Source: Candidatus Omnitrophota bacterium (lineage in GTDB: Bacteria > Omnitrophota > Gorgyraeia > Gygaellales > Profunditerraquicolaceae). From it: DNA of 64,000 bases. The notes beneath the pieces were generated by a model. That model made no database searches and had not been told where the DNA came from. It saw only the letters and a list, made by a program, of their open reading frames with translations. Below, piece by piece: positions 30,006-55,822 of this stretch; position 1 is the stretch's first letter, and each line of letters starts with the position of its first letter. Both the position numbers and the translations under genes were made by a program. The stretch spans positions 728,359-792,358 of the forward strand of contig CAWDSS010000010.1 in the NCBI GenBank assembly GCA_963805065.1, read 5' to 3'.

Positions 30006-30017
30006 GGAGTTGCTACA

Positions 30018-35906: not shown

Positions 35907-36338
35907 TTACCGTAACAGGCGTTCGATCTCGCTTTGGCGCTCTTTCTCGGTTCTAAGTCGGGAAATATATAAAAGTCTTCTGCCGGTAAAGATTCTCAGT
36001 TTTTCCTGATCGTCACAGGATCTCATATTTTCTACGAAGTCAGCGGGTAACCGGTTGACTATTTTTAACAAGTGTGCTAATTTGGACTCTGACATATTGA
36101 GTTCTCTACAGGTTTTTGCCCAGGTTATTCTGGTTGTACCGCTATTGATGAAGGTTTTAATTTTCAGGGCTTCTACTATGGTATTTGGGTAGACCCGGGG
36201 CCTTCTAATGGGTACCGGAGGTAAAGGATCTACTAAACTAAGCAAAGTTCGCTTGCTTCGCCGGATTTCCATCTTCACAACTAATTGCACTACTTGAAGT
36301 TCTGCGGTGCGGCGGGCGACAACGCTGGGCAGCCACAC
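35907..36338 (-). CDS. hypothetical small DNA-binding-like protein at the end of the recombinase cassette
   Basis: It has an HTH-like stretch (TRITWAKTCRELNMSESKLAHLLKIVNRL). The track start is a GTG inside repeat DR1, so the ATG at 36272 is an alternative start. Confidence 0.4.
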   Translation of the reverse strand: MWLPSVVARRTAELQVVQLVVKMEIRRSKRTLLSLVDPLPPVPIRRPRVYPNTIVEALKIKTFINSGTTRITWAKTCRELNMSESKLAHLLKIVNRLPADFVENMRSCDDQEKLRIFTGRRLLYISRLRTEKERQSEIERLLR

Positions 36339-36407
36339 AAATCTCTCAAATTCCAGATTGAGAGATAATGATTACCCTGATTAGTAACGTTAATCAGGGT
36401 ATTTTTT
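36327..36407 (+). ncRNA. candidate small RNA (two hairpins plus intrinsic terminator) at the start of DR1
   Basis: Hairpin 1 is tctctca/tgagaga (36342-36365). Hairpin 2 is a perfect 10-bp accctgatta/taatcagggt (36374-36400) followed by T6. Confidence 0.3.
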
Positions 36408-36555
36408 ATGTTTTGAGGTGGCAAAGAGTTAGGGCATTATTTTTCCTGTTGTTCTGCTGCTATTGATTTTTAATTTTGATCCTATTTAAGGTTAGCAAAA
36501 ATAAGCCAAATAAATCTCTTCGGAGTATCTCTTTATCTCTGAATTGCCACCTAGT
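36327..36555 (+). repeat. DR1, a ~229-bp diverged direct repeat (partner at 55500-55727)
   Basis: Hand alignment shows colinear similarity from GGGCAGCCACA through ...TCTCTTTATCTC..ATTG(C/G)C. I estimate roughly 75% identity by eye. Confidence 0.7.
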
Positions 36556-36668
36556 AAAGGCTCCACAGTAAATGGATATTCGGCGAAATTCTGCACAATA
36601 TAAAGCCTCAGTTAAGGCGTTTACTAGGAAACAACAATCCAGAGATAGAATCCCTCGATGATTTTCGG

Positions 36669-36789
36669 TGTCCGAACGGACAAAATGGGCGAAATTATGT
36701 CCGTTTTGTCCGGTCTTTTTTGACCATAAATTCTCTAACCTATTAAGGCATTAGGAGATATGGATGTCCGCCTCACTTGACCCGGACAT
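36669..36789. repeat. cluster of TGTCCG motifs (palindrome, direct pair, 26-bp inverted repeat) 3' of the recombinase gene
   Basis: TGTCCGAACGGACA lies at 36669-36682 and TGTCCG at 36698 and 36707. ATGTCCG-12 nt-CGGACAT lies at 36764-36789. Confidence 0.6.
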
Positions 36790-36865
36790 TGGTAATTTAT
36801 CTCCATTTTGGGTACGGTTCTTGTAAAATTTAAGAGGTATCCCCGTTAAGGACAACGGATTTATA

Positions 36866-38566
36866 CTAGAGAGGTAAAGCTTGATTCTTGGAGAGAGTTT
36901 CTTTGATGTTCTGCCAGATTTGGGTTTGTTTTTCCCAGTCAACTTCGGCAGCAAGAGAGCGGACCTTATATTCGGGAATAAACGAGATAATCTGTTTATC
37001 GCCATTGAGTATCTCATTTTGAATGGCAGGTGCAATAAGTAGCATAGTCATTAGGTGGTCAAGGCGGGCTTGGTCAAAATTAAGCCATTCAGAGGCCTGT
37101 TTAAGGCTCTTTATCTTGCCTTCGTCAAACAGCCTTTGTAATTGGTGTGCTAAGATTAAGTTCCTGCGAATCTTTGGTTCTTTTTCGATTTCCTCTTCCT
37201 TATGCCATTTGTTTAAAGGCCGCACCTGCTTTAAATCAACATCGAACTCAAGCCCAAGATCGCTGCCGTTTAAGACAATCTTGAGTTTTTTGGTATCATA
37301 AGAATAGTTGATTTCTTTGATAAGGGTGCGCAAGATTCGGCGTTTTTCTTGTGGGAATAAAGTATCCCAAACAGGAGACATAAGGGCCTCAATCTCTTGT
37401 TTGTCGGGATGGTCACTTAATTTTCTTTTATCAGAGAAGATCCGCTTTAAGCTATCTATTACGGCATCCTCAATTGCCTGGGCATTGATGGATTTGGTAG
37501 GGCAGGAGTGATAGCCGCGTTTCTGCGCGCTTGAGCAGACATAATAACGGTATTTATGCGTTGGCTTTTTCATCGTATAGGTGTGGTACATAAAGCTTCC
37601 GCAGGTCTTACATTGCAACAGGTGGCTCAATAATCCAGTACATTCGGTGTTCTTTGTAGCCCTGCGCTCAATGCGGTTTTGTTTAAGCTTTTCCTGGACT
37701 TTTTTGTATGTTTCCTCGTTTATTATGGCTTCTTGCTGGCCGTCGTAGATTTGGCCTGCATAGCAGACCTTTCCTAGGTAAAGAACATTGGTTATAATCT
37801 TCTGTATCTGGGTGATGCCGAATTTAAGGCCACCGAATGGCTTCCCGTCCTTGCGGATTCCCGATCTTGACCTATATCCCTTTTCATTTAGGATATTGGC
37901 TACTTTAAGGAGTGAGTTATCTTTGAGATATAAGTCAAAGATCTTACGGACAATCTCAGCTTCAGCCTTATTGATGAGAAGCCTTTTGTTTTCTATGTCA
38001 CGATCATATCCGAATGGTGTCCTGCCACCTAGCCATTTGCCACGCTTCCTTGCTGCACCCATCTTGTCTTTGGTTCTCTCTGAGATAATCTCCCGCTCAA
38101 ATTGGGCAAAGGAAAGAAGTATATTCAAGGTAAGCCTGCCCATAGAAGTATTGGTATTAAAGGCTTGGGTTACGGATACAAAAGTGACACTATTCTTATC
38201 AAAGAATTCAAGCAATTGTGCAAAATCCATCAAAGACCTGCTCAACCTATCAACCTTATAAACAACCACACAGTCTATTCCGCCTGCCTTAATATCCGAC
38301 AGAAGTTTTTGTAGGGCTGGTCGGTCAATGTTTGCTCCTGTAAAGCCGCCGTCATCGTATTGGCCTTGTAGCGCAACCCAGCCCTCATGCTTTTGGCTGT
38401 TAATGTAATTCTCGGCAGATTCGCGCTGGGCATCAAGAGATGTAAAGTCTTGATCTAAGCCTTCAGAAGTAGACTTACGGGTGTAAATTGCGCAGTAGAT
38501 GCGTTTTTTCTGCTGTTTATCTTCAACAGTCATATTCACCTCATAGATTAAAGAAGAGGTAGCCAT
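36866..38566 (-). mobile_element. large serine recombinase (resolvase/invertase N-domain plus recombinase and zinc-ribbon domains)
   Basis: The N-terminal YCAIYTRKSTSEGLDQDFTSLDAQRE contains the catalytic Ser region. The 566-aa size and Cys clusters (CKTCGS...YYVCSS) fit the family. Confidence 0.9.
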
Positions 38567-39008
38567 TCCAGTGTGCTCCGGTTACCTCCTTGGCAATGGC
38601 GCTTAGGCTTTTGTAGGTTTTATTATTGTATTCAAAGCCTTTCTCAAGGATTTTTAATTCATACTTCTTACTCTTATATTCCTTAGTAATGAGCGTTCCG
38701 GGGATAGGGAGGCGTCTATCCCTGCTAGGTTTCTTTTTATCAATCTGCCCATTTCCGTTATCGGGCCGGATGTTAGTATTGTTGACCGGGTCGTATTTTT
38801 TGATTAGCTCTTGGATTTTACCTTGAGTCTCCTCTGAGACATTGCCACATTTCAGCTCCTGTAGGCGATAGGCAATCTTACGCCAGAGAAATACCTTGTT
38901 ATTTGAAGGCGCATTTTGGGATGGGAACAGCTCTTCGTATTTTGCCTTTAGCTCAACGAGAGATTTTTCCTTAAGTTCCATTATTTGAGATAGATTAGTT
39001 TCTGCCAT
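38541..39008 (-). CDS. DUF2924-like protein (common partner of large serine recombinases)
   Basis: The pattern LKAKYEELF....NKVFLWRKIAYRLQE is present, and the gene overlaps the recombinase start. The ATG at 39008 (RBS aagggga) is preferred over the track start at 39062. Confidence 0.65.
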   Translation of the reverse strand: MAETNLSQIMELKEKSLVELKAKYEELFPSQNAPSNNKVFLWRKIAYRLQELKCGNVSEETQGKIQELIKKYDPVNNTNIRPDNGNGQIDKKKPSRDRRLPIPGTLITKEYKSKKYELKILEKGFEYNNKTYKSLSAIAKEVTGAHWNGYLFFNL

Positions 39009-39165
39009 AATTGATCCCCTTTTGTTAGTACACATATGTCCATACAATTCTAGATAAGTCAAGGCAATTAGAGAGGTATTTTTAGTTGTTTAACCTTTTG
39101 AAAAGAGGTATAATTAAGTTGTATTTTACGTGATAAAGGTAAAATAGAGGATTTGATAAAAATAC

Positions 39166-39194
39166 TTGACGATACCACTGTTTTGTTATATAAA
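39166..39194 (+). promoter_or_regulatory. promoter TTGACG-17-TATAAA for the AbiGi-like/PIN-like pair
   Basis: The hexamers lie at 39166-39171 and 39189-39194 with 17-nt spacing. Confidence 0.4.
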
Positions 39195-39252
39195 GAAATT
39201 ACAATTTGCCTAGTGGTATGTTTGAAGGGGGAACTGCCACGTTAAAATAATT

Positions 39253-39297
39253 AAAACCTTCGTTGGGCGAATACGCCTAGCGAAGGTTTTCTTATTT
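39253..39297 (+). terminator. leader hairpin with A-tract/T-tract arms (attenuator or bidirectional terminator-like)
   Basis: aaaaccttcg pairs with cgaaggtttt around an inner ggcg/cgcc stem, followed by cttattt. It lies between the promoter and the ATG at 39311. Confidence 0.45.
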
Positions 39298-39310
39298 GAG
39301 GGGGATAAAT

Positions 39311-40180
39311 ATGAGTAGATTCTATGCCCAAACAGTTCATTCCGATATTCTTATCCATTGGACAGGAAGAGATTTTGATAATGCGGTTCGAGAGAATCTT
39401 TATGATAATCCGGCACGGGACCAGCCATCAAAAACAAAGGATGATTTAAATAAAAGATATATAGAGCGGTTAATCGCCCTTTTGCGTTATGGGTTGTGGG
39501 TTACAGAAGATAAAACAGAGGATTATGTTGTAATAAATAATATAAAATTTGAACTTCCTAAATATCCTCGCGTTTGTTTTACTGAGCTGAAATTATCGGA
39601 ATCAAGAAAACATGCTTTTAAATTCGGAAGATTAGGCATTGGTTTTAAACGGTTATTCGTTATAGGAGCGGGAGGGCATCCGGTTTATTATTTGCATAAT
39701 CAAGGTAAAAGTATGTTTTTCCCATCATCCAAGTCTGAGCTGAAAGAAAGTAAATACGCTTATTTTAAAAGAATGAATTCCGATCCCGGAGATTTAAATT
39801 ACGACCTATTTGCAGAATCGGAATGGCGTATTGTATACGATCCAGAATTGCATTTGGAGAAATATTTTGTTAATCCACGAGGTAATCTAGGAGAAGAATT
39901 TGATAAATACCCATATAAGAAATATTTAGATTTTAAGGACTTCGAGCTGTTCTGTCAGAATGCAAGAGATAACTCTTGCTTGAAATTCCTTTTGCCTTTA
40001 AATGGATGGCTAGCAATGGTTATATATCCAAGTCCAGATGTCAAAAATATGGCAAAAGCCTTAGGTATTCACGATTTAGTCCAGAATATCAAAATGAATA
40101 ATCCACAGTCTATCAGTCCAAGATATGAGCAAGAAATGATGCCAGTAGAGTTGGATTTAGATCTGTGTGATCATTTCTAA
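39311..40180 (+). CDS. AbiGi-like abortive-infection family protein
   Basis: The pattern LIHWTG..., PRVCFTELKLSESRKHAFKFGRLGIGFKRLF....GGHPVYY and ESEWRIVY resembles the AbiGi family. The ATG follows a gaggggg RBS. Confidence 0.5.
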   Translation: MSRFYAQTVHSDILIHWTGRDFDNAVRENLYDNPARDQPSKTKDDLNKRYIERLIALLRYGLWVTEDKTEDYVVINNIKFELPKYPRVCFTELKLSESRKHAFKFGRLGIGFKRLFVIGAGGHPVYYLHNQGKSMFFPSSKSELKESKYAYFKRMNSDPGDLNYDLFAESEWRIVYDPELHLEKYFVNPRGNLGEEFDKYPYKKYLDFKDFELFCQNARDNSCLKFLLPLNGWLAMVIYPSPDVKNMAKALGIHDLVQNIKMNNPQSISPRYEQEMMPVELDLDLCDHF

Positions 40181-40198
40181 TCTGTTATTATCAAGGGT

Positions 40199-41293
40199 AT
40201 GAATATAATTATTGATAGCAATATTATTTGTGCTGATTTTCAATTCAAGGGCAGTTCTTTCCGAGTTTTGTTTGATAGTTCAGATCGAATCGGAGTAAGA
40301 TTGTGCATACCGCAGTTAGTGGTCGATGAAGTAAAAAACAAGTATGCTGAATGTTTTTGGGAAAACAAATCTAAAATAGATCGTATTATGTTAGATTTTA
40401 AACGGCTAACCGGGGAATTAATAGCTAATAGCGTTAGCGAAGATTTTGTGAAAGGAAAAGTAAAAAATTATAATCAAATGCTAATGAATAAATTATCTGA
40501 ACTGGAAGCTGTTATTCTAAAATACCCTACAATTTCCCATGAACATCTGGTGCAGCGAGCTTTATCAAGAAGAAAACCCTTTTCAGAAAGCGGCAAAGGT
40601 TATCGTGACACACTTATATGGGAAAACCTGGTTGAATTAATGACAGAGAATAAAAATGAAACAGTTTATTTTATAAATGCGAATTCACATGATTTCTGCG
40701 ATAAAGAGTTTGCTCTGCATCCGGATTTGATTACAGACCTTGAGAAAAGAGGACTCAACCCTAAAAATATTGTATTATTCAATAGTTTAGAAGGGTTTAT
40801 TAATGAACATATTAAACCAACTCTCGAAGCTTTGGAGAACATAAAAAATCAGCTTCTGTCCCGAAAACCTCCTAACATTACTTTGCATGATATGATTTTA
40901 GAGAAAATTGACGAATTGCTTCCCGGTAAAGACGTAGATCCTTCAGAGCTTGATTTTCCCCGGGAATATGAAAATCCTACAATTGCCTCCATCCAGGATA
41001 TATATAATATTGAAGTGATGGATGTGCGTAAATTGCATTCCGGAGAAATATATTTGATTGCAGAAATGGATGCGGAATGCGAATTTGATTTTTTCATTTT
41101 TAAATCAGATTTTTACGTAATGAACGAAGAGAAGATACCTTTTATATGGGATTACAATTGGAATGAACATTATGTTGCGGCATCTGGGTCTAGTCAGATT
41201 CACGTCATGCTTTATTTGACTTTTGATACTAAGCTCGAAGAAATTACTTCATTTGAGATGGGAACTATTATGGGGGTTTCTAGAACCGAATAA
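40199..41293 (+). CDS. PIN-like domain protein (DUF4935-like)
   Basis: The N-terminal strand is IIIDSNII. The segment GKGYRDTLIWENLVEL....VYFINANSHDF matches the DUF4935 PIN-like pattern as I recall it. Confidence 0.5.
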   Translation: MNIIIDSNIICADFQFKGSSFRVLFDSSDRIGVRLCIPQLVVDEVKNKYAECFWENKSKIDRIMLDFKRLTGELIANSVSEDFVKGKVKNYNQMLMNKLSELEAVILKYPTISHEHLVQRALSRRKPFSESGKGYRDTLIWENLVELMTENKNETVYFINANSHDFCDKEFALHPDLITDLEKRGLNPKNIVLFNSLEGFINEHIKPTLEALENIKNQLLSRKPPNITLHDMILEKIDELLPGKDVDPSELDFPREYENPTIASIQDIYNIEVMDVRKLHSGEIYLIAEMDAECEFDFFIFKSDFYVMNEEKIPFIWDYNWNEHYVAASGSSQIHVMLYLTFDTKLEEITSFEMGTIMGVSRTE

Positions 41294-41378
41294 CAAACCA
41301 TTTTTATCGCGCAAAAACTAAACACATTAAAACGATATATTATAACTAATATTTACAGGGCAAAGCGGATCAACTCAC

Positions 41379-41837
41379 ATGGAAATTTCTGGTTTCTCTA
41401 ACTGGATAAAATGGAAAGATCGTGTTAATTTAGAAGGCTTTGATTATCCAGGTGTTTATGCTTTAGCTATCTCAACTAAAGATATATCCGGTGAGCCGTT
41501 TTCGCTGATACAAGAAATCGAATATTTTGGTATGACGAATCGAAATAGGGACGGTTTAAGGGGCAGGTTAAATCAGTTTGAAAATACTATAAAAGGCAAA
41601 AAGGGGCACGGAGGGGCGCTTAGATTTCTGTGTCACTATAAAAATCAAGAAGATTGGATAAGCAATTTATATCTATCTGTAAACTATGTTAAATGTGACG
41701 TAACAACATTCAATCCATCTGATTGGAGAAAGATGGGAGAAATTGCTAAATTTGAATATATCTGTAATGCTGAATACCTTGAGAAGTTTCAAATATTGCC
41801 TAAATTTCACGATAAGCTAAAATCGCCTAAACATTAA
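41379..41837 (+). CDS. GIY-YIG-like nuclease domain protein
   Basis: It contains YPGVYAL ... IEYFGMTNRNRDGLRGRLNQF (a GIY...YIG...R arrangement). Confidence 0.4.
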   Translation: MEISGFSNWIKWKDRVNLEGFDYPGVYALAISTKDISGEPFSLIQEIEYFGMTNRNRDGLRGRLNQFENTIKGKKGHGGALRFLCHYKNQEDWISNLYLSVNYVKCDVTTFNPSDWRKMGEIAKFEYICNAEYLEKFQILPKFHDKLKSPKH

Positions 41838-41903
41838 CCCCTGACTGTGTAAAATTATCTCCTATATTAAGGCGGTTTTCATAAACATGAAAGGAGAAAC
41901 TAC

Positions 41904-42947
41904 ATGTCTATAGTCAATCCAGATAACAAGAAGATGGTATTAAGCTGTGACGGTGGCGGTATTCGCGGCATTATTATAGCAAGATGCCTTCAAAAATTGG
42001 AAGAACTTGAGCATAAACGCTGCAATGAAATCTTTTCCCTCATGGTAGGTACAAGTACTGGTGCAATTATTGTAGGAGCCTTGGCAAAGGGTATGCCTGC
42101 TAAGGAATTGGTCGAGCTTTACTTAAAAAGAGGAAAGGAAATATTCACAAAAACGCCCTGTTTATTGACAAGGTGGTGGAGATGGAAATACACAAAAATA
42201 GGAGTAAGGAAGGTTTTTAAGCAGATTTTCGGTGATACAGCGCTTGAAGATCTTCCAGTGGAGATATTAATTTCCTCTACGGATACGGTACGCGGGGAAA
42301 CCATGTTTTTTGAAAAGCATAAGACATTCGGCAAGATGCTTTTAAGAGAAGCAGTCGAATCAAGCATGTCTGCCCCTACGTATTTCGAACCCAATGGCAG
42401 GTATATAGATGGTGGAGTGGGCAGTTTTAATAACCCTTGTTATCAGGCTGCAGTTGAAGCAGTGCATTACCTTAATTACCCAAAACAGAACATTAGGATA
42501 TTGTCTTTCGGCACCGGCAGGGAAATGAACAATATGAAGGAAGGTGAGGCTGAGAAGAAAAACATAATTGGCTGGTGTCTCTATGTGATTGGTGAAGGAA
42601 TGGATGATGCTAATGAACAGCAGGTAGAGTTGGTACGAAGAGAATATCGGGCACGAAAAGAAGTGGAATTTAGAAGATACCAACTTTCCTTTAATAATCA
42701 GGTTTTTACCCAGATAGGTGTTCCGCTTGATAAAGTCAAAGATCCCAGAATCTTTGCAATGGATGCCGTTGAACACGTTGGAATCCTTAATATGATAGCT
42801 GAGAAATTTGTTCAGTGTATCAATTTCACAGAGAAAGACGGGGTAGAATTAGGAGTAAAGCCTAGGCTCCAGATAAATGACTACAATAGATATTTAAAAG
42901 GATTTCAACCCATAAAGCCCAAGTCGCGGTTTAAGATATTATCATAA
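41904..42947 (+). CDS. patatin-like phospholipase (cytoplasmic type)
   Basis: It has CDGGGIRG, the nucleophile motif GTSTGA and the catalytic IDGGVGSFNNP. Confidence 0.85.
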   Translation: MSIVNPDNKKMVLSCDGGGIRGIIIARCLQKLEELEHKRCNEIFSLMVGTSTGAIIVGALAKGMPAKELVELYLKRGKEIFTKTPCLLTRWWRWKYTKIGVRKVFKQIFGDTALEDLPVEILISSTDTVRGETMFFEKHKTFGKMLLREAVESSMSAPTYFEPNGRYIDGGVGSFNNPCYQAAVEAVHYLNYPKQNIRILSFGTGREMNNMKEGEAEKKNIIGWCLYVIGEGMDDANEQQVELVRREYRARKEVEFRRYQLSFNNQVFTQIGVPLDKVKDPRIFAMDAVEHVGILNMIAEKFVQCINFTEKDGVELGVKPRLQINDYNRYLKGFQPIKPKSRFKILS

Positions 42948-43063
42948 GGGGTGATTCAAACACACGCAGCTCCGCACATCTCTGAGTTATTGGTACAGTT
43001 TAAGAAGTCTGACAACCCGGAAAAAGAAAACACGGATAACTTACATGAAATGAGGTTTAGAAC

Positions 43064-43948
43064 ATGAGCAAAGAGTATCAATATGATGTAGTTTTAAGTT
43101 TTGCTGGAGAAGATAGATCTTATGTCGAAAAGGTTGCAGAATTTTTGAGGACAAAAGGTTTGCGCGAATTTTATGACCAATTTGAAGAGGTAAGCTTGTG
43201 GGGCAAGGATCTTGTCGCCCACCTTGATGATATTTACAGAAATAAGGCATGTTATTGCGTGATGTTCATATCAAAGCATTATGCTCCTAAAAGTTGGCCG
43301 AAAATGGAAAGAAGAAGTGCCTTTGCGCGCGCTTTGAGTGATGAAGGATATATTTTGCCCGCTAGGTTTGATGATACAGAGATCCCTGGTTTACCGCCGA
43401 CCATTCATTATATAGATTTGAGGCAAAAAACTCCTGTAGAATTAGGCGAGCTAATTATTCAGAAGCTTAAAAAGACACCTAGTTCCGCAACTATTACAAA
43501 CACTCATTCGTCTTTTCGCCGTCCTAAAGTAACAAAGGCGTTCGATCCTTATAAAGAATCCCAAGCCTGGATAGATTATTTAATGCTCGAGTTAGAAAAA
43601 AGAAGTAAGGATTCAGAAATATCGTTCAGTCATTTTCCCAGAGATGGTAAGCAGTGTTTAAGATTCGTGGTCAACGGGAAACCCGTCTACTCAATAAACA
43701 TACAATTGGGTGGGTTTTATCGTGATCACGGCTTAAGCTTCAGTTACGCCCATGGGGAAATGCAAATGACTTCCGGCTATAATGCTTTTGCGGATTTTGA
43801 ATGGGATAAAGAAAAAGAATGTGTTGTTTTAAAGCTCAATGATTTTAGTGCATTTTCAGCTGGCAGTTCAATACAGAATTTCACTCAGCTTGAGTTTCTT
43901 GAATATATCTGGGGAAAGGTATGTGACGCTGCTGAAGAAAAGTATTAG
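43064..43948 (+). CDS. TIR domain protein with an uncharacterised C-terminal domain
   Basis: YDVVLSFAGEDRSYVEKVAEFL...VMFISKHYAPKSWPKMERRSAF is a canonical bacterial TIR pattern that includes a candidate catalytic Glu. Confidence 0.8.
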   Translation: MSKEYQYDVVLSFAGEDRSYVEKVAEFLRTKGLREFYDQFEEVSLWGKDLVAHLDDIYRNKACYCVMFISKHYAPKSWPKMERRSAFARALSDEGYILPARFDDTEIPGLPPTIHYIDLRQKTPVELGELIIQKLKKTPSSATITNTHSSFRRPKVTKAFDPYKESQAWIDYLMLELEKRSKDSEISFSHFPRDGKQCLRFVVNGKPVYSINIQLGGFYRDHGLSFSYAHGEMQMTSGYNAFADFEWDKEKECVVLKLNDFSAFSAGSSIQNFTQLEFLEYIWGKVCDAAEEKY

Positions 43949-43960
43949 CAAGGAGGTAAT

Positions 43961-44104
43961 ATGAAAAAAGCAAAATTTAAATGTAAAAGATGTAGACACA
44001 CATTTGTTGTCGAAATATTTGAACTGGGAGAAGCCGAAGCCACGAGAAGGCCGACATCTCCAGTTTGTTGTCCTGAATGCGGAGGTCCGGTGGAAAGAGC
44101 ATAG
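43961..44104 (+). CDS. 47-aa zinc-ribbon protein (CxxC...CxxC), not in ORF track
   Basis: An aggagg RBS lies at 43951-43956. The peptide is MKKAKFKCKRCRHTFVVEIFELGEAEATRRPTSPVCCPECGGPVERA. Confidence 0.5.
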   Translation: MKKAKFKCKRCRHTFVVEIFELGEAEATRRPTSPVCCPECGGPVERA

Positions 44105-44153
44105 GCTTTCAAATAAAACGCAGAGTTTTTTTGTTCGGAACTAAGGCAAAACA

Positions 44154-44996: not shown

Positions 44997-45165
44997 GGAT
45001 GTCGCCCCCCAAGAGAAGTGATAATGCTCAACCTATTTAGGATATAATTATACCCCCCTTGTGCAATTAATTTTGAGGGAGGATAATCCATGAGAAATTT
45101 TGTATTACTATTTTAACAAGCTGTTCACTAAGGGAAGGTTATTCCGAAGTTGAAGGAGGAGCAGC

Positions 45166-46877: not shown

Positions 46878-46908
46878 GACCGGAAAGCGTACAAAAGGAG
46901 CGAATGAC

Positions 46909-47178: not shown

Positions 47179-47249
47179 CAACTATTAAAGTTTTATCTTT
47201 TCGCCTGTTGCATCATCTGGGCGATTAGGACACTTTAGGAAGAGATGAG

Positions 47250-47936
47250 ATGAAAAAAGTTTTGGTGGCTATGACAGGCGGGTTTTTGATCGCAGGATTA
47301 CTGTTAACGGCGTCAGTTTTTGCGCAGGATTCCACGTCTAATATAAATAAGAAGGAGGCGAACATGAAAAAGTCTATCGGAGCAAAAACCATTGTTTTCC
47401 CAACGCCTGTTTTTGTCGTAGGGTCATACGATAAATCCGGTAATCCTAATGCAATGGTCGTTGCCTGGGGCGGCATTTGTTGTTCAAATCCTCCTTGCGT
47501 CTGTGTCGCTATCAGGGAAGCCACTTATACCTATGGTAATATCATGGCACGCAAGGCCTTTACGATAAGCATCCCTTCAGAGAAATTTATCAAAGAAGCA
47601 GATTACTTCGGGATCGTTTCGGGTAGGACAGAGGATAAGTTTGCCGCTACTAAGCTTACGCCTGTAAAAAGCGACCTTGTGGATGCCCCGTATGTTAAGG
47701 AATTCCCGTTTATTTTGGAATGCTCCGTAATCCAAGTTGTAAAATTAGGATTACATACGCTATTTATCGGTGAGATCAAGGATGCAAAGGTCGATGAGGC
47801 GGTACTGGGGAAAGGCGGAGTGCCTGACATTGAGAAGATAAAACCGATGATCTTTGACCCTGCAAACCGCACCTATTATGGCATTGGTAAATACTTAGGC
47901 GATGCATTTTCGGAAGGGAAGAAGATAAAGAAATAA
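47250..47936 (+). CDS. flavin reductase-like (FMN-binding split-barrel) protein with two candidate starts
   Basis: The flavin reductase-like core starts near residue 39. The internal ATG at 47364 has a strong aaggagg RBS. The upstream 38 codons encode a signal-peptide-like extension. Confidence 0.7.
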
Positions 47937-48339
47937 ACCAGCATAAATACCCTAAGCGTAATAGCAAAGACACCCTTTTGTAAGTCTCATTATGAGCTGC
48001 CTGTGCAAAAACCTAAACCCTACCCCCAATAATAATGCCTCGCCATACCGACCAGCGTTTCCTTGCAGCACAGACGGTTTCTTCCTGAGGCAGGCTATTA
48101 TTAATATTCGCACAAGCAAAAGTCAAAAACCCACTCCCTTCATTAAACAACTCCCTCATTTTCAATACCATACACCCCTAAATAAAGTACTGCCTTAGCC
48201 TTGACAAATCGATTTTATGTGTTAAACTTTAAACAATTATTTCCTGGAAGCGCTTTCTAAGTAAGCAGGAATTATTTTTTTCTGCATTAGTTAAATACTT
48301 TTCAAAAGTCTAAAATAAGATAATTTTAAGAACATATTT

Positions 48340-48409
48340 GCCACGGTGTTTCTTAAAATTTTACCTTTGGTCAGAAGGGTAAAATCGGAGGATAGCCGTG
48401 GCTTTTTTT
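48340..48409 (+). terminator. long structured hairpin plus T7 in the leader of the giant gene
   Basis: gccacgg (48340-48346) pairs with ccgtggc (48396-48402) around an inner ttttaccttt/aagggtaaaa stem. A T-run lies at 48403-48409, about 45 nt before the ATG. Confidence 0.5.
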
Positions 48410-48453
48410 ATTCTTATTCAAAACAGAAGAAATAAACCAAGAGGAGAAGACAA

Positions 48454-51400
48454 ATGAGTAATTTCAGGAAAAACAAAGCATTCTTAAGAGTAGCCTGTTT
48501 ATTCGTAGCCATGTCTTTCTTAAGCAGCGCAATCATGCCAGGGTTTGTCAGGGCACAGGATTTAATCCTACCCTCACCCACACAGTTTGTGAACCTATCC
48601 ACTGCTTATTCCTTCCCAGTTCTAAAAGGCATGAAATTTGACCCCTCTGACCCCTTAAAGATGCAGTTTATCATTGATACAGCAGACCAGGGCAAAGTAA
48701 GCCAGGAAGAAGCCTCCCAGCTGATTAAATACTTCTTAGCTGGTTTAACCATACCTGAAACAGACCTCTGGGTCAACATGTCTCCCTATGAGCATGACAA
48801 CATGATTACTACTGCTCTTTCTGAGACTGACTTAGGTAAAGACCTGCTCTCACAGGATTACATCCTAAAGCAGCTTTCTTCCTCCTTAACCTATCCTGAA
48901 AGCGATACTGGCAAGGACTACTGGGCCAAGACCTATCAGGAAGTCCAGCGTATAGCCCATACCACCAAACTACCAGTCAATACCTTTAACAAGATCTGGA
49001 TTATGCCTGAAAAAGCAGAAATCTATGAGAATGAAACTACAGCCTTAATCACCAAAGCAACTTTAAAGACATTACTAGACAGGGACTACCTGGCCTTAAA
49101 GAACAATCTCTCTAGTATCCAGAACAATAAGAAGAATATGCAGGAAGATCTGATTAACAAGGTAGATGAAGCCTCAAGCAAGGTCATGCGTGAGCAAATC
49201 CTTCCTAAAATCAACCAAGAAGTCAATTCCGGCAAGAACTTTGCCACTCTAAGACAGATATATCACTCACTAATTCTAGCCATATGGTTCAAACAGAAGT
49301 TCAAGGACTCTATTTATAAGCAATACATAGATAAAGGTAAGGTAAAAGGCATAGACCTAGCTGACAAGGATGCCAAAGACAAGATCTACAACCTCTATGT
49401 AGAAGCCTTTAAGAAGGGAGTCTACAACTACATAAAGTCAGACTTTGACCAAACCACACACCGCAACATCAAAAGACAATACTTCTCAGGCGGCTTCTCT
49501 GTAGGCAGCCCAGTTGACTTTATGAACAAACACCCCATGAATACACTTCCTGCCGTGAATGACCTGCTGGAAGGCAATAATGTTGGTTTATCTATAGTGG
49601 CAAGTCCGATAACGACAAAGGGAAAGAGTTCAGGGAGTCCGACTACCGACAGAATCGAACAAATAGATAAAGCCTATGAATTGATTAATACAATTTCCAC
49701 TAAGCCCCTTGGTCACGTTGCTATAACTAAACTGATAGAGGAAACTGATGTAGAGGTACTTAACCAGGCGCAACGTTTGCTCAATCAAAGAATCAAAGAG
49801 GCGCAAGATAAGGGCAATTATTCTGAGACAGCAAGGCTAGATAAAGTCGCACTGATTATTAAGGAAGTTATATTTATTAAAGAAATTCCTTCTAAACTAT
49901 CCAAAATCTTAATGGGATCAGGACAGGCTTCGGATGATAAAATAAAGCAAGCGCAGACTGATGCTTTAAACCGTATTTATCATATTGTAAAGGAGGCGCC
50001 AACTAAATACGGAAGAGGATTCCTTGAGTCGAAAAGTGCGGGGAGTCCGGCTACCAGCAAAGAAGATGAAGTATTGTTTAGGGCATCGACTATGAAGAAA
50101 ATTGCAAATCTTGACGGACAAATGATAATGATAGATGAACTGCTCCCCTTCACTTTTCTCCCTCAACATTTACGAGATAAATTATTATCTGTGGAAAAAT
50201 CTTTAAGAAAAGAAAAAAGTCTTTTAGAAGAACAGATAAAACAATATCAATCGTTAATCGTTCAAAGCCCGGATTTTTTATTTTTAGAGTTATTAGATTA
50301 TGCATCAACACATTTAGCTTTTCTTAATGGCCGAAATACTATATTAAAAGGAATAAGAGATGGCGAATTTAGCTCAATCGGCAAGAAGATAAAAGCTGAA
50401 GATATTAAAAAAGAGCAATTAACAAAAGATCATGCCACAAGATTAATAGTGCAAAATTTGGATGAGATAGACAGAGCAAGAAGAGCCTTGATAAGGACTC
50501 GCATCAATAAGAGCGAAAATATCCTTTTAGATGCTGCTAGCCTTATTATTTCGGCTATTAGGAATACAAAAATAATTCCTGCTGCAACAACGCTTTTGGG
50601 CGTGCGGCAACCGCTAAAAGAAATCTCAGATATTGTATTCAGAGCCAAAACGTTATTAACAGATTTATCCATGAATAATATGTTTGAAAATGTAATTATT
50701 AAAGCGAATGAAACGCTTATGTCAGATGCGTCTAAGATAAATGATTCTATCAAGCCTGTAGAATCAATCCAAAAAGTTCATGAACCATCTGTGAAAGATG
50801 AACTTATAGAAGCGTTAGTAAAAACAAAAAGAAGCCAGGATCGGGTCAAAATGGCTTCTTTGGTTCTATATGAGCCTATTTCTGAATTAAAAGAAGCAGG
50901 CGATCAGTCATCAACTCGTGAATTCCTTGAAGGAATAGTCACGTCACTGTCAACAGTTTCAGATGCCCTAGACAAAACAAAAGAGTTATTGAAACAACAT
51001 CTTCCCGACTCAGCCGGCTCGCCGATACAGGATTTTGACTCAACGCAGCATGCCCTTCGGGTGTTGATACAAATTTCTGACCCATCTAAGGAAGAGGAGT
51101 TTGATGCATTGCTCAAACAAATGGATATCGCAGGGGATCAGACAGAGAAGAAGTTTGAAAACTTTATCGCATCAGTTTTTGATAAAACCGGCGACCTTTT
51201 TAAATTACGTCCGGTACCAATTTGGGTTGTGAATACGATTCTTTTGTATACCGATCCAAAGATTATATTCAATTCAGAGATTCCAATTAAACCCACCGAA
51301 GCCGCAACAGATGCCTTGACCAAAATTTATCTTAATTTAACCGACCTTGAACAAACAAAGCTTCTTGCACACATTGAAGCTTTAGCTACAGGATTGAAGC

Positions 51401-54400
51401 CGTGGGAAGGTTTCTCATGGGTGCCGAAAGATTATGGCAAGCCTTATATTTTTGCTCAACGGTTACGGTCATCGGCGTATGAGGGGAAATTCGGGGTTAA
51501 CAGAGTTATATATGAATCCAGCGTCGCCGCCTCACCGATTTCTGCTAAAGAACTTTTTGCCAAAGCACATATTTTACTAGATACATTTGGAGTATCAGGA
51601 AAAGAAAGCCACGTTATAGTAGATGGCAAAAGAATGCAGATTGAACTATCCACAAGAAGTGCTTTAATAATTGCTGAACAGAAATTAACCAAGTTCGGTA
51701 GTATAAAGACAATTAGCTTAGAAGATATTCAAAAGTTTAAAGCAAGCGATGAAGGAAAAGTTTTAGATCCCGTAGCTTTTCACTTCATTGAGCAAGCCTA
51801 TAAAGAACTACCCAGTGCCTCCGGCATACCAATACTCAATCCACAAGATATTTCTAAGGCAATGTCACTTTATGAAAAATTCTATGGTGGTAGCAATTGG
51901 ACTAGAATGGCCATGGAACATTATTTAAAAGGTAATATAAGTCTTTCTCATGTAGCAAGGGTGATCGGCTTGGTTTCAGATGATTTACTTTCATTTGATG
52001 CTGCAAAAATCCCAGCTCTTACTGTGTATATCGCTTTAAAGTATGGTTTCCTTGAGCCAGAGGAATTTAAGAATATAAAATCAGCTATTGAGATTGCAGA
52101 AACAAATACTCCGGATTCATTTAACCGTGCCGAAGCATTAATTGCTCAAAACAAAGGTATTGATGCAGCAAGGGCAACAGAGATTCTTGATGATGTATTT
52201 AATCAGTTTAACAGGGCTCTGCCATTAACCGAAAAAGAAGACCAGCGCTTGCAAGTATCTTTATTACAAGGGAATTTCCCGAAAGGCATAGCCGGCTCGC
52301 CGATTTTTACCGCTTCAAAGATAGAAGTAGATAAAACAAGAGCAATAAATTTAGGAAAAATCGACAATGCAAAATATGGCCATAGAGAATTATTATTAAC
52401 TGAATCTGAATTGAGTGCTTTAACAGATGCTTTAACAGATAAAGATGCTCGCTTAGCCGTGTACCAAATATACGATTATGGCTCAATCAGTGAAAACTTG
52501 CTTTTTACGATCTATTTCGAAAATGGCTTGCCTATGGTTATAGGGCCAAATATTTGGCGTGACCAGCAAGATACATGGAAATACGGGCAATCCCCTAGTA
52601 AAGAGGACATTTTGATCTCTTATGACCCTGCTCATAAGAATTTACGTATTGAGACCCGGCAAGAAACAGATTCAAAAACCCTAAGAAATAATTATGAAAT
52701 AAGGCTGGAACAGGTTAAGGCATCCGGCTCGCCGATAGGCGAAGGTCTAACCAACAGTTTGATATTAAAACAGGATCTTAAAATCACAGTTACCGAAGAT
52801 GCGCCAGCAAGAAGCCATAGGCACGATGCCTTTTCCTATTTATATCTAGATTCCCAAGATGCAATAAAGTTTTTTGAATCCTTAAAGGACAAAATTATTA
52901 CACCACAATACGATTTAACCAACTTTAAAGATTACTTTGTATTATTTTCCTTTACTGCTCGTTCAGGAGACCAAAAACAAGATAGAATAATTCCCTTAGG
53001 AGTCGTAGCGCATAAAGATATTGGAAAAGAAAAAGAAGGAGAGGAAACAGTAATATTAAATTTCGCGGAAAGCGCCTTTGCGCAGTATTTACTAAAAGAG
53101 TGGGTTGATACAAATCCGCTAGTTAGCGGTAAGACATCATTTGTAGAATTTATTCACCTAAAGGATAACTTCGTTGTTAGAATGGAGAATTTTTCTTTGA
53201 GAGGAAATGAATTACAGCGAAAGGCGTTTGAGTCACCATACACGGGTCATAAGAGCGAAAATTATCCTTATATCTCAGGAAATATTGAAATTGTAGTTAA
53301 TGACAAAACCCAGGCTGGCTCGCCGGTTACCCATGAATTAAGTATTGATAAGCCTGTTGAATTTGGAGAGGGGCCGGTCCTCAGTGGCATCGAAACGACT
53401 ACCATCAAACTGCCTCCTTATAAAGAGCTAATTGGAAGAATCATAACTGTATATCAAACTTCTCCAGAAGGTGAAATTGCTCCCGATGCATCAGGCGATT
53501 TTCCAATAGTTAGCTTAGTTCTTCATTCTCCGAATGATGATCGTATGAGTGTTGAGAGAGCTAATTACCAAGGAACCCTTGAGCGCAACGGTTTTGATTT
53601 TGATGCTACTTATATGTGTTACATTTATGATGATAATCATGATCGTTTACTTATTTCAAGTTATGATGGAGGGGTTCTACAACTTAAAATTCCTCATTAT
53701 CTTAATTCGAGAAAAGACCGTCAGTATAAGGTAGTGATTGAATTAACTAAAGAAGAATTAGCTGCTAAAATAAAGTACTTAACAGAACAGGAAACGGACT
53801 TAGAAAATCGTATGAATGATTTGGCTAAAATAATAAATGATCAGAGTATAACAAGCGAACATCATATAACTGATCTAAAAGACTTTGTTGGTTTATACAA
53901 TCAACTGCGTGTATTTAGGGAAGAATCAAAAAAATTGAAAGCAAAGTCCATCGCAGCAAGCCCGCTAACCAAAGCAGAGGAAACAAGAATTAAGCAGCTG
54001 GAAGAAAACATGGATGGATATATTAATAACATGGAAATAGTATTAACAAATATTCAGGAAAACAGTGCTTTAATTGCCAGCCTTTCGAAAGTTAGGCGTA
54101 CTGAAATTTCTACAAAATTTGTGGTGCGAGATAAATTAGAAGATTTACAAGAGCGAAATAATAAAGAATATGTAGAATTTAAAAACTTACTAACTCTATT
54201 TAGATATGACTATAACGAATGGAATGATTTGAGAATTAAAAGTAATCAATCCGAACAAAAGGGGGGCGCCAGCTTGCCGGCGGTCGTAAGTTCAATAAAA
54301 GTGAGAATCGATGAAGCTAAGTTACTTTCTCTTGCAGGAGAATTGGCAGATAATAGCCCAAAAGGAACTTTATATCTAAAAACTAATGGGAGAATTAATT

Positions 54401-55128
54401 TTGACGAAACCAATCCTGCTATGCCTGAGATTTCCTCCCAAGCCAGTGCTTATTGGAAATTATTTTCTAAATTTATACAGTCGACGAAAGAAGCTCAAGA
54501 ACCAACTCCCGAATGGATGGGACCTATCCCTCGGGAAATAGTAATTCCCAAGAATTCTTCAAAAGACTTTATAATACAACGTCTTCTGAATGAGGCGGGT
54601 GTTACTGCCAGCTCGCCGGCTGGAGAAGTTTCTTCCAGCCCTGCAAATGACAGGAGCGATCCTAGGAATCGGTGGATTAACGATCCATGGCGAGAACCGC
54701 CCAGTTCGAGGTATCCTCGCGAACCTCGCTATGGCGGTAATCTAGACCTACCTTGGGGTTATTATCGTAGTACTTATGGTAATATAGTTAACAATTGGAA
54801 TGGTCATGTCTATACTCCAGAGCAATGGAAGGAAAAACAAAAAAAAGGCTCTAGCCCGCTACAAATGACACAAGAAGCTGCCAGTGGCTCAATAGGAGAA
54901 GAAAAAGGTGGTATTGACTTAGGCAGCATTGATGTTGTAGCTACTCCTAATTCAGTGCCTGTGAAAATACCTGCTATAGACCTGAGTAACTTAGAAGGCT
55001 TTACCTTCCAGATTATCAGGATGCAGCCGATAAACAACTTAAACCCCATGTTCGGCATCTTTCCAAAAGTAGGAGAGAATAAAGATAATACCGTAAAGAA
55101 CAAAGAACTGGCTTATTTGAAGAATTAA
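48454..55128 (+). CDS. giant secreted protein (2224 aa): conserved ~350-aa N-terminal domain plus SP-motif-punctuated modules
   Basis: An uninterrupted 6.7-kb ORF with an aggag RBS and a signal peptide (ACLFVAMSFLSSAIMPGFVRAQD). Its N-domain is paralogous to 61579-62409. Confidence 0.85.
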   Translation: MSNFRKNKAFLRVACLFVAMSFLSSAIMPGFVRAQDLILPSPTQFVNLSTAYSFPVLKGMKFDPSDPLKMQFIIDTADQGKVSQEEASQLIKYFLAGLTIPETDLWVNMSPYEHDNMITTALSETDLGKDLLSQDYILKQLSSSLTYPESDTGKDYWAKTYQEVQRIAHTTKLPVNTFNKIWIMPEKAEIYENETTALITKATLKTLLDRDYLALKNNLSSIQNNKKNMQEDLINKVDEASSKVMREQILPKINQEVNSGKNFATLRQIYHSLILAIWFKQKFKDSIYKQYIDKGKVKGIDLADKDAKDKIYNLYVEAFKKGVYNYIKSDFDQTTHRNIKRQYFSGGFSVGSPVDFMNKHPMNTLPAVNDLLEGNNVGLSIVASPITTKGKSSGSPTTDRIEQIDKAYELINTISTKPLGHVAITKLIEETDVEVLNQAQRLLNQRIKEAQDKGNYSETARLDKVALIIKEVIFIKEIPSKLSKILMGSGQASDDKIKQAQTDALNRIYHIVKEAPTKYGRGFLESKSAGSPATSKEDEVLFRASTMKKIANLDGQMIMIDELLPFTFLPQHLRDKLLSVEKSLRKEKSLLEEQIKQYQSLIVQSPDFLFLELLDYASTHLAFLNGRNTILKGIRDGEFSSIGKKIKAEDIKKEQLTKDHATRLIVQNLDEIDRARRALIRTRINKSENILLDAASLIISAIRNTKIIPAATTLLGVRQPLKEISDIVFRAKTLLTDLSMNNMFENVIIKANETLMSDASKINDSIKPVESIQKVHEPSVKDELIEALVKTKRSQDRVKMASLVLYEPISELKEAGDQSSTREFLEGIVTSLSTVSDALDKTKELLKQHLPDSAGSPIQDFDSTQHALRVLIQISDPSKEEEFDALLKQMDIAGDQTEKKFENFIASVFDKTGDLFKLRPVPIWVVNTILLYTDPKIIFNSEIPIKPTEAATDALTKIYLNLTDLEQTKLLAHIEALATGLKPWEGFSWVPKDYGKPYIFAQRLRSSAYEGKFGVNRVIYESSVAASPISAKELFAKAHILLDTFGVSGKESHVIVDGKRMQIELSTRSALIIAEQKLTKFGSIKTISLEDIQKFKASDEGKVLDPVAFHFIEQAYKELPSASGIPILNPQDISKAMSLYEKFYGGSNWTRMAMEHYLKGNISLSHVARVIGLVSDDLLSFDAAKIPALTVYIALKYGFLEPEEFKNIKSAIEIAETNTPDSFNRAEALIAQNKGIDAARATEILDDVFNQFNRALPLTEKEDQRLQVSLLQGNFPKGIAGSPIFTASKIEVDKTRAINLGKIDNAKYGHRELLLTESELSALTDALTDKDARLAVYQIYDYGSISENLLFTIYFENGLPMVIGPNIWRDQQDTWKYGQSPSKEDILISYDPAHKNLRIETRQETDSKTLRNNYEIRLEQVKASGSPIGEGLTNSLILKQDLKITVTEDAPARSHRHDAFSYLYLDSQDAIKFFESLKDKIITPQYDLTNFKDYFVLFSFTARSGDQKQDRIIPLGVVAHKDIGKEKEGEETVILNFAESAFAQYLLKEWVDTNPLVSGKTSFVEFIHLKDNFVVRMENFSLRGNELQRKAFESPYTGHKSENYPYISGNIEIVVNDKTQAGSPVTHELSIDKPVEFGEGPVLSGIETTTIKLPPYKELIGRIITVYQTSPEGEIAPDASGDFPIVSLVLHSPNDDRMSVERANYQGTLERNGFDFDATYMCYIYDDNHDRLLISSYDGGVLQLKIPHYLNSRKDRQYKVVIELTKEELAAKIKYLTEQETDLENRMNDLAKIINDQSITSEHHITDLKDFVGLYNQLRVFREESKKLKAKSIAASPLTKAEETRIKQLEENMDGYINNMEIVLTNIQENSALIASLSKVRRTEISTKFVVRDKLEDLQERNNKEYVEFKNLLTLFRYDYNEWNDLRIKSNQSEQKGGASLPAVVSSIKVRIDEAKLLSLAGELADNSPKGTLYLKTNGRINFDETNPAMPEISSQASAYWKLFSKFIQSTKEAQEPTPEWMGPIPREIVIPKNSSKDFIIQRLLNEAGVTASSPAGEVSSSPANDRSDPRNRWINDPWREPPSSRYPREPRYGGNLDLPWGYYRSTYGNIVNNWNGHVYTPEQWKEKQKKGSSPLQMTQEAASGSIGEEKGGIDLGSIDVVATPNSVPVKIPAIDLSNLEGFTFQIIRMQPINNLNPMFGIFPKVGENKDNTVKNKELAYLKN

Positions 55129-55164
55129 TATAAGCGGTTAGATTAAAAATGGCTGGTGAGATAA

Positions 55165-55193
55165 GGGCGAAGCGTTAAAGCTTCGCCCTTTTT
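55165..55193 (+). terminator. Rho-independent terminator of the giant gene
   Basis: A perfect 9-bp stem (gggcgaagc/gcttcgccc) with a 6-nt loop and a T5 tail. Confidence 0.7.
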
Positions 55194-55234
55194 GCAATGT
55201 ACTTACACCGAGTCAGAGCTCCTTTTAAAAGCGA

Positions 55235-55260
55235 ATGTCCACCTCTCGGAGGCTGGACAA
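55235..55260. repeat. 26-bp inverted repeat ATGTCCA-12-TGGACAA, similar to 36764-36789
   Basis: It has the same length and outer arms as the site next to the recombinase gene. A hand count gives 17 of 26 positions identical. Confidence 0.5.
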
Positions 55261-55499
55261 CGATAAATGTTTATGTTCCAAACAGTTAAGAAAAATGACC
55301 CCCTTAAAAAGTGGACAAATAAGACAAGAAATCGGCCCTTTTAAGAGCTACTCATTAATTTTTTCACCCTTCTAAAGGTTTGCCATAATCGTATCTTGAA
55401 ATCTATCTCTCATAGCTCATAATTTCTTGATATTTGCCCTATTTCCTATATAATTAGCCTATTAGTATTAAGAGATATAGTTATTACCTATACCAACAC

Positions 55500-55580
55500 G
55501 GGCAGCCACATAAATCTCTCGGAATCCAGTATGAGAGATAACTTAATCCCTGATTAGCAACGCTAGCCAGGGCATTTTTT
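55500..55580 (+). ncRNA. candidate small RNA, second copy
   Basis: Hairpin 1 is tctctc(g)/(t)gagaga. Hairpin 2 is ccctgattag/ctagccaggg (one mismatch, one wobble) followed by T6. Structure is kept despite sequence changes relative to DR1. Confidence 0.3.
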
Positions 55581-55727
55581 ATGTCCGCACGTTTCAAAGA
55601 GTTGGGGCATTATTTATTCTGCTGTTTTGTTGTTATCAATTTCAAATTCTAATCCTGCCCCAGGTTCGCAAAAATAAACCAAATAAATCTCATCGGCTTA
55701 TCTCTTTATCTCAGTATTGGCTATTAG
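55500..55727 (+). repeat. DR2, partner of DR1
   Basis: See DR1. This copy retains an upstream -10-like TATAGT and the shared ACGGGCAG leader motif. Confidence 0.7.
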
Positions 55728-55822
55728 TTTCTTAGGTTTAGTGTCTTGGTTATATGGCAATATAATGCGAATTACTGGCTTAAGAATTGATGAGGAACTG
55801 GAAAATTAGTAATATTTATCTG

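Follow-up and report, generated by a model that had tools for sequence, protein, structure and literature searches.

Direct repeats flanking element X

The stretch of DNA analyzed here (64,000 nucleotides of contig CAWDSS010000010.1 from a Candidatus Omnitrophota genome, referred to below as the window) contains a segment, element X, that encodes a large serine recombinase (LSR) and is bordered by two long direct repeats, DR1 (36327-36555) and DR2 (55500-55728). No direct repeat in the window is longer than this pair (229 nt, 77% identity without gaps), and a MAFFT alignment of both copies with their flanks gave 79% column identity. As was originally predicted from the sequence by eye, which had put the repeats at ~229 bp and about three-quarters identity, both begin with the same bases (GGGCAGCCA), followed by an inverted repeat (hairpin 1) and then by a stem-loop with a T6 tract; folding of DR1 and DR2 predicted the same two hairpins in each. 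A covariance model built from 31 family members matched the window exactly twice, at DR1 and DR2 (E=5e-22 and 6e-19). Beyond the right ends of both repeats, weaker homology with the same architecture extends for another ~90 nt, to ~36630 and ~55810. A third copy of GGGCAGCCA is present at 57005-57013, downstream of a degraded copy of the sequence that precedes DR2. The features of the repeats and of the two ends of element X are listed below, where trailer refers to the sequence that follows GGGCAGCCA.

36327-36335, plus strand: start of DR1, displaced tRNA-Gln(CUG) 3' end GGGCAGCCA (3' strand of the acceptor stem, discriminator, and CCA); left junction of element X and candidate crossover region
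36339-36368, plus strand: hairpin 1 of DR1, an inverted repeat AAATCTCTC-N12-GAGAGATAA containing two AGAGATA-type motifs
36373-36407, plus strand: Rho-independent terminator of DR1, a 13-bp stem (stem-loop 36373-36401) followed by T6 (from folding and covariation)
36420-36442, plus strand: conserved block A (GGCAAAGAGTTAGGGCATTATTT), kept in the trailer copies of many loci
36506-36539, plus strand: conserved block B (CCAAATAAATCTC..TATCTCTTTATCTC), with two direct AGAGATA motifs on the minus strand
36552-36647, plus strand: subfamily 9-mers TAGTAAAGG, AGTAAATGG, and inverted TTTACTAGG, then AGAGATA; distal recombinase-side arm, with an architecture common to all LSR-adjacent copies
36866-38566, minus strand: LSR of element X, 566 aa (Pfam Resolvase 5e-39, Recombinase 1e-16, Zn_ribbon_recom 1e-14; PHROG integrase 2e-122)
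38541-39062, minus strand: DUF2924 protein (Pfam 1.5e-37), the constant upstream partner of the X-type LSR
55399-55499, plus strand: conserved right-end arm (P arm) of element X, with homologous arms in L027, L003, L005, L006, and L019
55500-55728, plus strand: DR2, consisting of GGGCAGCCA and the trailer of Z, a second element that has decayed (from alignment, folding, and the covariance model)
55512-55541, plus strand: hairpin 1 of DR2, an inverted repeat
55546-55580, plus strand: terminator stem-loop of DR2 with T6, read from the sequence

The repeats begin with the 3' end of tRNA-Gln(CUG)

Judged by sequence, the start of DR1 and DR2 is the 3' end of a tRNA-Gln(CUG) gene. A scan for GGGCAGCCANANAAATCTCTC, made with one genome per species, returned 11 loci, mostly in metagenome-assembled genomes (MAGs) of Omnitrophota and "Planctomycetales," and at six of these (within L003-L011) GGGCAGCCA forms the last 9 nt of tRNA-Gln(CUG), comprising the 3' strand of the acceptor stem, the discriminator, and CCA. 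The hairpin and terminator lie downstream of the motif at these six loci wherever the contig continues; in four of the six, blocks A and B are present as well, and four are positioned downstream of gltX. An intact tRNA-Gln together with a second, displaced 3' end plus trailer 0.3 to 2.4 kb downstream was found at three of the 11 loci (L004, L006, and L012), and L009 shows a similar layout, with a second copy ~0.2 kb downstream in which the contig ends. The second copy in L004 begins in the T-loop, and a Fic-plus-HNH islet is enclosed. The tRNA-Gln of L012 has a different trailer of its own.

ARAGORN detected no tRNA gene in the window. The Logan contig L063, which matches window positions 1-3651 with zero mismatches, reaches 8.6 kb further left, and its first 33 nt are the end of tRNA-Gln(CUG) (…GGTTCGATTCCATGCGGGGCAGCCA). 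The full tRNA-Gln(CUG) is present in L064, which encodes the closest relative (95% identity) of the LSR that adjoins the tRNA in L063. The array therefore reads, in order, as tRNA-Gln; a first element, Y; GGGCAGCCA-DR1 and element X (36327-55499); GGGCAGCCA-DR2 and the remnant of element Z (55500-57004); and GGGCAGCCA followed by native DNA. The tRNA 3' fragment GGGCAGCCA marks each border, at 36327, 55500, and 57005, in addition to the tRNA itself. Element X is intact and 19.2 kb long, while remnant Z has been reduced to ~1.5 kb and has lost its recombinase.

We also noted that tRNA-Gln(CUG) lies directly 3' of gltX, the gene for glutamyl-tRNA synthetase, in L004, L007, L008, L010, L012, and L027, all from Omnitrophota-like genomes. 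The gltX-tRNA-Gln pair is a conserved chromosomal context of this integration hot spot.

The trailer accompanies the recombinase gene

The LSR of element X has the three-domain architecture of resolvase catalytic domain, Recombinase domain, and zinc ribbon, and its stop codon (36866) lies ~540 nt from the junction at 36327. Relatives of this LSR were recovered from 36 metagenomic loci at 54-93% identity, with a DUF2924 protein (64-88% identity) encoded upstream of the LSR in related loci. At 17 of the 36 loci a convergent tRNA gene is found 270-540 nt past the LSR stop codon. The interval between LSR and tRNA in most of these 17 contains blocks B and A together with the terminator and the inverted repeat. 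The tRNAs represented are Gln-CUG, Gln-UUG, Asn, Met, Trp, and Lys, and the junctions between tRNA and trailer that could be read (at Gln and Asn tRNAs) all have the form CCA-NNNN-AATCTCTC. Because the same trailer follows six different tRNAs, which would not be the case for a chromosomal trailer, the trailer belongs to the element. The repeats are ends of a recombinase-bearing mobile segment, as the original prediction had proposed. A scan of viral contigs with the trailer pattern gave 14 matches, none of which had the hairpin-terminator module, and we regard these as chance matches.

In LSR-adjacent copies, a 9-mer occurs twice in direct and once in inverted orientation between block B and the LSR stop codon, and the sequence of this 9-mer defines subfamilies. 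DR1 belongs to the TAGTAAATG subfamily and retains its own LSR. The flank of DR2 (to ~55810) belongs to the TAGTTTCTC subfamily, which is LSR-adjacent in L030-L033, L048, and L008, but the corresponding LSR gene is missing from the window. Each repeat is the end of a different element, the two ends being homologous, and they are not two products of a single insertion as first supposed. The closest relatives of the X LSR (73-76% identity) are located at tRNA-Asn, whereas the X LSR itself is associated with a Gln-type end, which indicates that close relatives switch tRNA targets.

At one stage we assigned one type of flank past block B to the chromosome and the other to the element, which would have placed attB where the trailer ends distally. 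This scheme was dropped, since all flank types are LSR-adjacent and the trailer occurs at six tRNAs.

An independent complete element and the right-end arm

The contig L027 contains an independent complete element of 10.4 kb. Its order is gltX, tRNA-Gln, trailer, LSR, DUF2924, a 2,481-aa open reading frame (ORF), P arm, and GGGCAACCA with a second trailer, which matches the order in X. The P arm of L027 is nearly identical to window positions 55426-55499. No further recombinase was found among the ORFs of the L027 element, nor was a second recombinase found among the scanned ORFs of X.

An arm of ~100 bp of this kind usually precedes displaced copies and consists of AAATCTATCTCT, a TTGATA-N16-TATAAT promoter, AGAGATAnAGTTAT…CAACAC, and the tRNA-like 9-mer. 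In X, an inverted pair of AGAGATA motifs (55399-55410 and 55471-55477) surrounds the promoter, which points outward, lies at 55427-55454, and agrees with the consensus at 11 of 12 positions. The TATAGT that had been singled out upstream of DR2 does lie within this conserved arm, but TTGATA-N16-TATAAT is a much better promoter. Three P arms are joined to DNA that is not a trailer (at window position 57005, in L006b, and in L003), which implies that the element can do without a distal trailer and that this trailer is whatever sat behind the tRNA at the time of insertion.

In L003 (1811-1870), the sequence past the right-end arm is the presumed native tRNA flank, GGGCAG followed by TTAAAATG, in which CCA is not encoded; the end that the element brings does carry CCA. 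The plus strand has a strong stem-loop of 15 bp, with a T-run, at 36677-36712 of the window, where it separates the 9-mer region from the LSR stop codon, and related sequence adjoins the right-end arm of L027. We also considered that the P arm might be a decayed tRNA (74 nt from TGCCC to CCA), and we abandoned this idea because the 5' match is not kept in L005, L006, and L027.

A second LSR family at tRNA 3' ends

Element Y occupies 44.9 kb between the tRNA and DR1, starting at window coordinate ~-8573, and has its own LSR beside tRNA-Gln. This LSR (L063:1-1680, minus strand) contains the three LSR domains, is followed by prophage genes, and has 28% identity to the LSR of X. Relatives of the Y LSR were found on 41 viral contigs, and on 25 of these a convergent tRNA gene (for Gln, Asn, His, Arg, Ser, or Glu) abuts or overlaps the LSR gene at its 3' end; the 95%-identical relative mentioned above adjoins tRNA-Gln(CUG). 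No Phage_integrase match was found in the ORFs of X, in those of the L027 element, in the scanned ORFs of Y, or in the gene table of L063.

In L064, L071, and L080, the ORF of the Y-type LSR runs through the antisense strand of the tRNA. It follows that attP would lie inside the recombinase gene and that integration should alter the C-terminal codons.

Terminator, hairpin 1, and AGAGATA motifs

The original prediction took substitutions that preserve pairing as a sign of a structured RNA. We counted base pairs in 31 distinct trailer copies, and the two hairpins gave different results. The terminator helix changed on both sides in 7 of its 10 pairs, with 96.5% of cells paired, and its stem is under real selection for structure. 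For hairpin 1, covariation support is lacking: of its eight pairs, four never vary and one changed on both sides; the seven core pairs never vary on both sides, and the loop is variable in both sequence and length. The A-U to G-U change noticed between the two copies of hairpin 1 is real but affects only the outermost pair, which is unpaired in 14 of the 31 family members. The Rfam check that had been recommended returned no family; with gathering and with permissive thresholds, nothing reached the gathering score, and the best weak match was NsiR1 (E=0.56).

Each arm of hairpin 1 is a copy of AGAGATA, a motif that is also found inverted around the P-arm promoter, in direct orientation in block B, and, at several loci, near the start of the DUF2924 gene. 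Of 17 AGAGATA sites across the window, eight are concentrated in two ~300-bp patches at the element ends, where ~0.05 would be expected per patch (calculated from counts). Our reading of hairpin 1 is that it is a putative palindromic binding site for a protein and not a functional part of an RNA, and the AGAGATA arrays may bind a protein of the element. We also considered the AGAGATA inverted repeat as a pair of LSR half-sites; it spans the junction but is placed asymmetrically with respect to the inferred crossover.

Proposed integration at tRNA 3' ends and alternative explanations

We consider it probable that DR1 and DR2 are the recombinase-proximal ends, i.e., the P' side of the attachment site attP, of two LSR-DUF2924 elements that were inserted at tRNA 3' ends and are stacked behind tRNA-Gln(CUG). 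Integration would be catalyzed by the LSR, through recombination between attP, composed of the P arm and the P' trailer, and a tRNA gene at its 3' end. P' would restore the last bases of the tRNA and bring in the terminator, while the displaced original end would remain at the far side of the element. The terminator carried by the element would then end the tRNA transcript and shield the convergent recombinase gene. Repeated insertions behind one tRNA-Gln(CUG) would have produced the array, with the original tRNA 3' end now at 57005.

The crossover itself probably falls within the last ~9 nt of the tRNA, the identical block of attL and attR being only about that long, and three comparisons bear on its position. 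In L027, attL and attR are identical from exactly GGGCAACCA; the distal junction of L003 (GGGCAG followed by TTAAAATG) is without CCA; and the displaced GGGCAGCCA of L006 has only CAGCCA in common with the local tRNA end CTCCAGCCA. A crossover in the near-universal discriminator-CCA end would ease a change of tRNA target.

Several observations weigh against this interpretation. The crossover is bounded by the L027, L003, and L006 comparisons and is not mapped, and neither an empty site nor a circular junction was observed for X. The tRNA-Gln upstream of Y is known from an overlapping contig of another assembly with the same sequence, and not from within the window. Serine integrase rules disfavor recombination between attP and attL, the latter normally not being a substrate, yet junctions of P arm and trailer are common in the X family, so arrays need either site tolerance or another route. 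Serine integrase att sites are short (~40-50 bp), with a 2-bp crossover and no requirement for long identity; the ~9 nt of identity between attL and attR is compatible with this, but the conserved ends seen here (~320 bp plus ~100 bp) far exceed the need. Finally, DR2, which has no recombinase, could be a trailer domesticated long ago and not a remnant of recent date.

The explanation originally put forward was that each repeat encodes an independent, structured small RNA (sRNA) of ~80 nt and that an element inserted into, or replaces, an sRNA locus. Both copies do fold into two hairpins followed by a T-run, the terminator stem covaries, and the strong promoter 45 nt upstream of DR2 makes a transcript of ~115 nt plausible there. 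That promoter, however, is part of the conserved right-end arm of X, and DR1 has no promoter-like site. The 5' end of the supposed sRNA is the 3' end of tRNA-Gln, and at 13 or more loci (at least 13) the module directly abuts a complete tRNA gene and has no promoter of its own. The module is also always linked to an LSR gene or to LSR remnants, and neither the core pairs of hairpin 1, in which the 31 copies show no compensatory change, nor the Rfam search favors an sRNA. We therefore regard an independent sRNA as unlikely and the sRNA reading as largely wrong: the hairpin-terminator module is a tRNA trailer supplied by the element, and GGGCAGCCA is the end of tRNA-Gln. The idea of a replacement copy of an RNA locus was nevertheless right in spirit, since the element carries part of such a locus, although this locus is tRNA-Gln(CUG) and not an ~80-nt sRNA gene.

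The 229-bp sequence might instead be native chromosomal DNA 3' of the tRNA, in which case attB would be distal, beyond block B, and X would start at ~36550. The two flank types past block B, which at first resembled an element side and a chromosomal side, and a short dyad around GGC after block B are in keeping with this arrangement, but the same sequence stands behind six tRNA species wherever the LSR is present, and the flank types turned out to be subfamilies that are all found beside LSR genes. Moreover, displaced copies start at the tRNA 3' end with a conserved element arm before them, and L012 has a tRNA-Gln with its own trailer, so we give native DNA very little credence. It seems extremely improbable that the repeats arose by segmental duplication at the locus or by homologous recombination, with no link to site-specific integration; long direct repeats at 77% identity could represent an old duplication, but the same paired architecture is found in the unrelated contigs L027, L004, and L006, the two repeats fall into different subfamilies, each of which has members at other loci, and the junctions fall precisely at the tRNA 3' end.

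Returning to insertion of LSR-DUF2924 elements at tRNA 3' ends, we can offer a broader proposal, although only tentatively. Two unrelated LSR families might habitually use tRNA 3' ends as attB, and one of them, always accompanied by DUF2924, might have close relatives that hop between tRNAs through a crossover in the near-universal discriminator-CCA end. The AGAGATA arrays, the 9-mers, and DUF2924 might then constitute an undescribed accessory or directionality system that also controls the outward promoter, producing an RNA of ~115 nt only at tandem or attP-type junctions.

Relation to known integrative elements

The locus is a tRNA-gene island array of a known kind, but it is driven by integrases that have rarely been linked to tRNA targets. 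As in Islander/TIGER elements and the tycheposons of Prochlorococcus, the intact tRNA is proximal, displaced tRNA 3' ends lie between elements, degenerate remnants are distal, and the cargo is rich in defense or niche genes. Those systems use tyrosine integrases in their great majority, whereas both families described here use large serine recombinases, and the tRNA repeat here is only ~9 nt long, extended by ~220-320 bp of sequence carried by the element. In the tycheposon survey, which presents the tRNA-island model, tyrosine integrases were found in 910 of 937 elements and LSRs were a small minority (bioRxiv 10.1101/2020.12.28.424599). A 2020 study reported tRNA or tmRNA gene sites for 44.5% of elements with tyrosine integrases but for 4.9% of those with serine integrases; use of such genes by serine integrases had not been reported previously, and the 14 computational cases among 297 were flagged as needing proof (PMC7192596). 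Our search of the later literature found no description of a tRNA-targeting serine integrase family of this kind.

The three-domain LSR and the position of its gene beside one end of the element resemble the serine integrases of phiC31, Bxb1, and A118. The staphylococcal cassette chromosome SCCmec inserts at the 3' end of rlmH/orfX, the end of which is preserved, and can form tandem composite islands separated by short direct repeats. Insertion at the 3' end of a conserved gene with preservation of that end is likewise seen here, making SCCmec the nearest serine recombinase analogue for tandem islands. Unlike these systems, the elements described here have a tRNA target, an obligatory DUF2924 partner, and close enzymes at different tRNAs, along with very long conserved ends, AGAGATA arrays, and an outward promoter. 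An LSR gene that adjoins a gene with a DUF2924 domain has been described in the recombinase module of the Wolbachia prophage WO, in a report that, in contrast to what we see for the X family, is silent on tRNA targets (PMC11376236). The likeness lies in the gene pairing.

In Escherichia coli, 3'ETS-leuZ is an sRNA derived from the 3' external transcribed spacer (3'ETS) of a tRNA. The trailer described here similarly places a hairpin and terminator directly after the tRNA 3' end, co-transcribed with it, but differs in that a mobile element delivers it and in its linkage to a recombinase gene. For annotation, a conserved repeat consisting of a hairpin plus terminator may be the end of an element and not an sRNA gene.

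A preference for tRNA genes has hitherto been treated as a hallmark of tyrosine integrases. At this one locus, two different serine integrase elements lie behind the same tRNA, and relatives of the two recombinases (17 of 36 metagenomic loci and 25 of 41 viral contigs) are found at about ten tRNA species in all. If confirmed, these elements would provide well-defined, naturally retargeted pairs of serine integrases and att sites, which would be of interest for genome engineering, as well as a handle on the role of DUF2924 and a route by which defense islands and giant genes could move in Omnitrophota-like bacteria.

Gene content of the array

The remaining features of the array are listed below.

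1-36326, no strand assigned: part of element Y within the window, with prophage structural genes, efflux genes, a CBASS-like operon (cyclic oligonucleotide-based antiphage signaling system), and a restriction-modification system (from domain scans)
35907-36338, minus strand: 143-aa ORF without a family at the right end of Y, abutting DR1; homologue at L016:11968-12399, in the same position and orientation by a displaced trailer
39296-55128, plus strand: cargo of element X, with AbiGi-like, PIN, patatin, TIR, UPF0047, cupin, and flavin reductase genes followed by a giant ORF of 2,224 aa (from domain scans)
55729-55810, plus strand: continuation of the recombinase-side arm of Z, with 9-mers TTAGTTTCT, TAGTGTCTT, and inverted GAGGAACTGG, in the subfamily of L030-L033, L048, and L008
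55886-56638, plus strand: FkbM-type methyltransferase, the sole gene left in remnant Z (from a domain scan)
56976-57013, plus strand: degraded P arm of Z (56976-57004) and third GGGCAGCCA (57005-57013), then non-trailer DNA; distal border of the array

For the DUF2924 protein of X, no relative was found among solved structures, and a single-sequence AlphaFold model had a predicted local distance difference test (pLDDT) score of 43 and was unusable. BLAST searches of the repeat and of a 22-kb segment against phages and plasmids returned no match. Exact-protein look-ups gave no record for the methyltransferase encoded at 35179-35898 and one short identical contig for the FkbM protein.

Within Y, outer-membrane efflux (OEP) and major facilitator superfamily (MFS) transporter genes (19829-23648) lie between the prophage tail genes and the defense cluster. 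The CBASS-like operon (24769-31658) encodes a patatin effector, a protein with helix-turn-helix (HTH) and JAB-like parts, an E1/ThiF protein, a SMODS nucleotidyltransferase, and DUF6602, and it adjoins genes for a DNA methylase and a Bpu10I-family restriction endonuclease (31750-33839; E=8e-71). Y may itself be composite. The 143-aa ORF at its right end and the homologue in L016 lie at two unrelated loci, one with a Gln-type and the other with an Asn-type end, and this ORF may mark the right end of a further type of element.

The giant ORFs of X (48454-55128, 2,224 aa) and L027 (L027:535-7980, minus strand, 2,481 aa) hold equivalent positions in two independent elements, immediately ahead of the right-end arm. 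Neither has a Pfam match, but they have in common an N-terminal domain of ~350 aa (31% identity, E=3e-50), which is also present in a 276-aa ORF outside the array (61579-62409 of the window). Giant genes of this kind may travel as cargo of these elements. Short direct repeats that appear to be in frame were also noted in coding regions of the window, at 63472-63638 (50 nt, with a spacing of 117 nt) and at 17155-17341 (43 nt, with a spacing of 144 nt).

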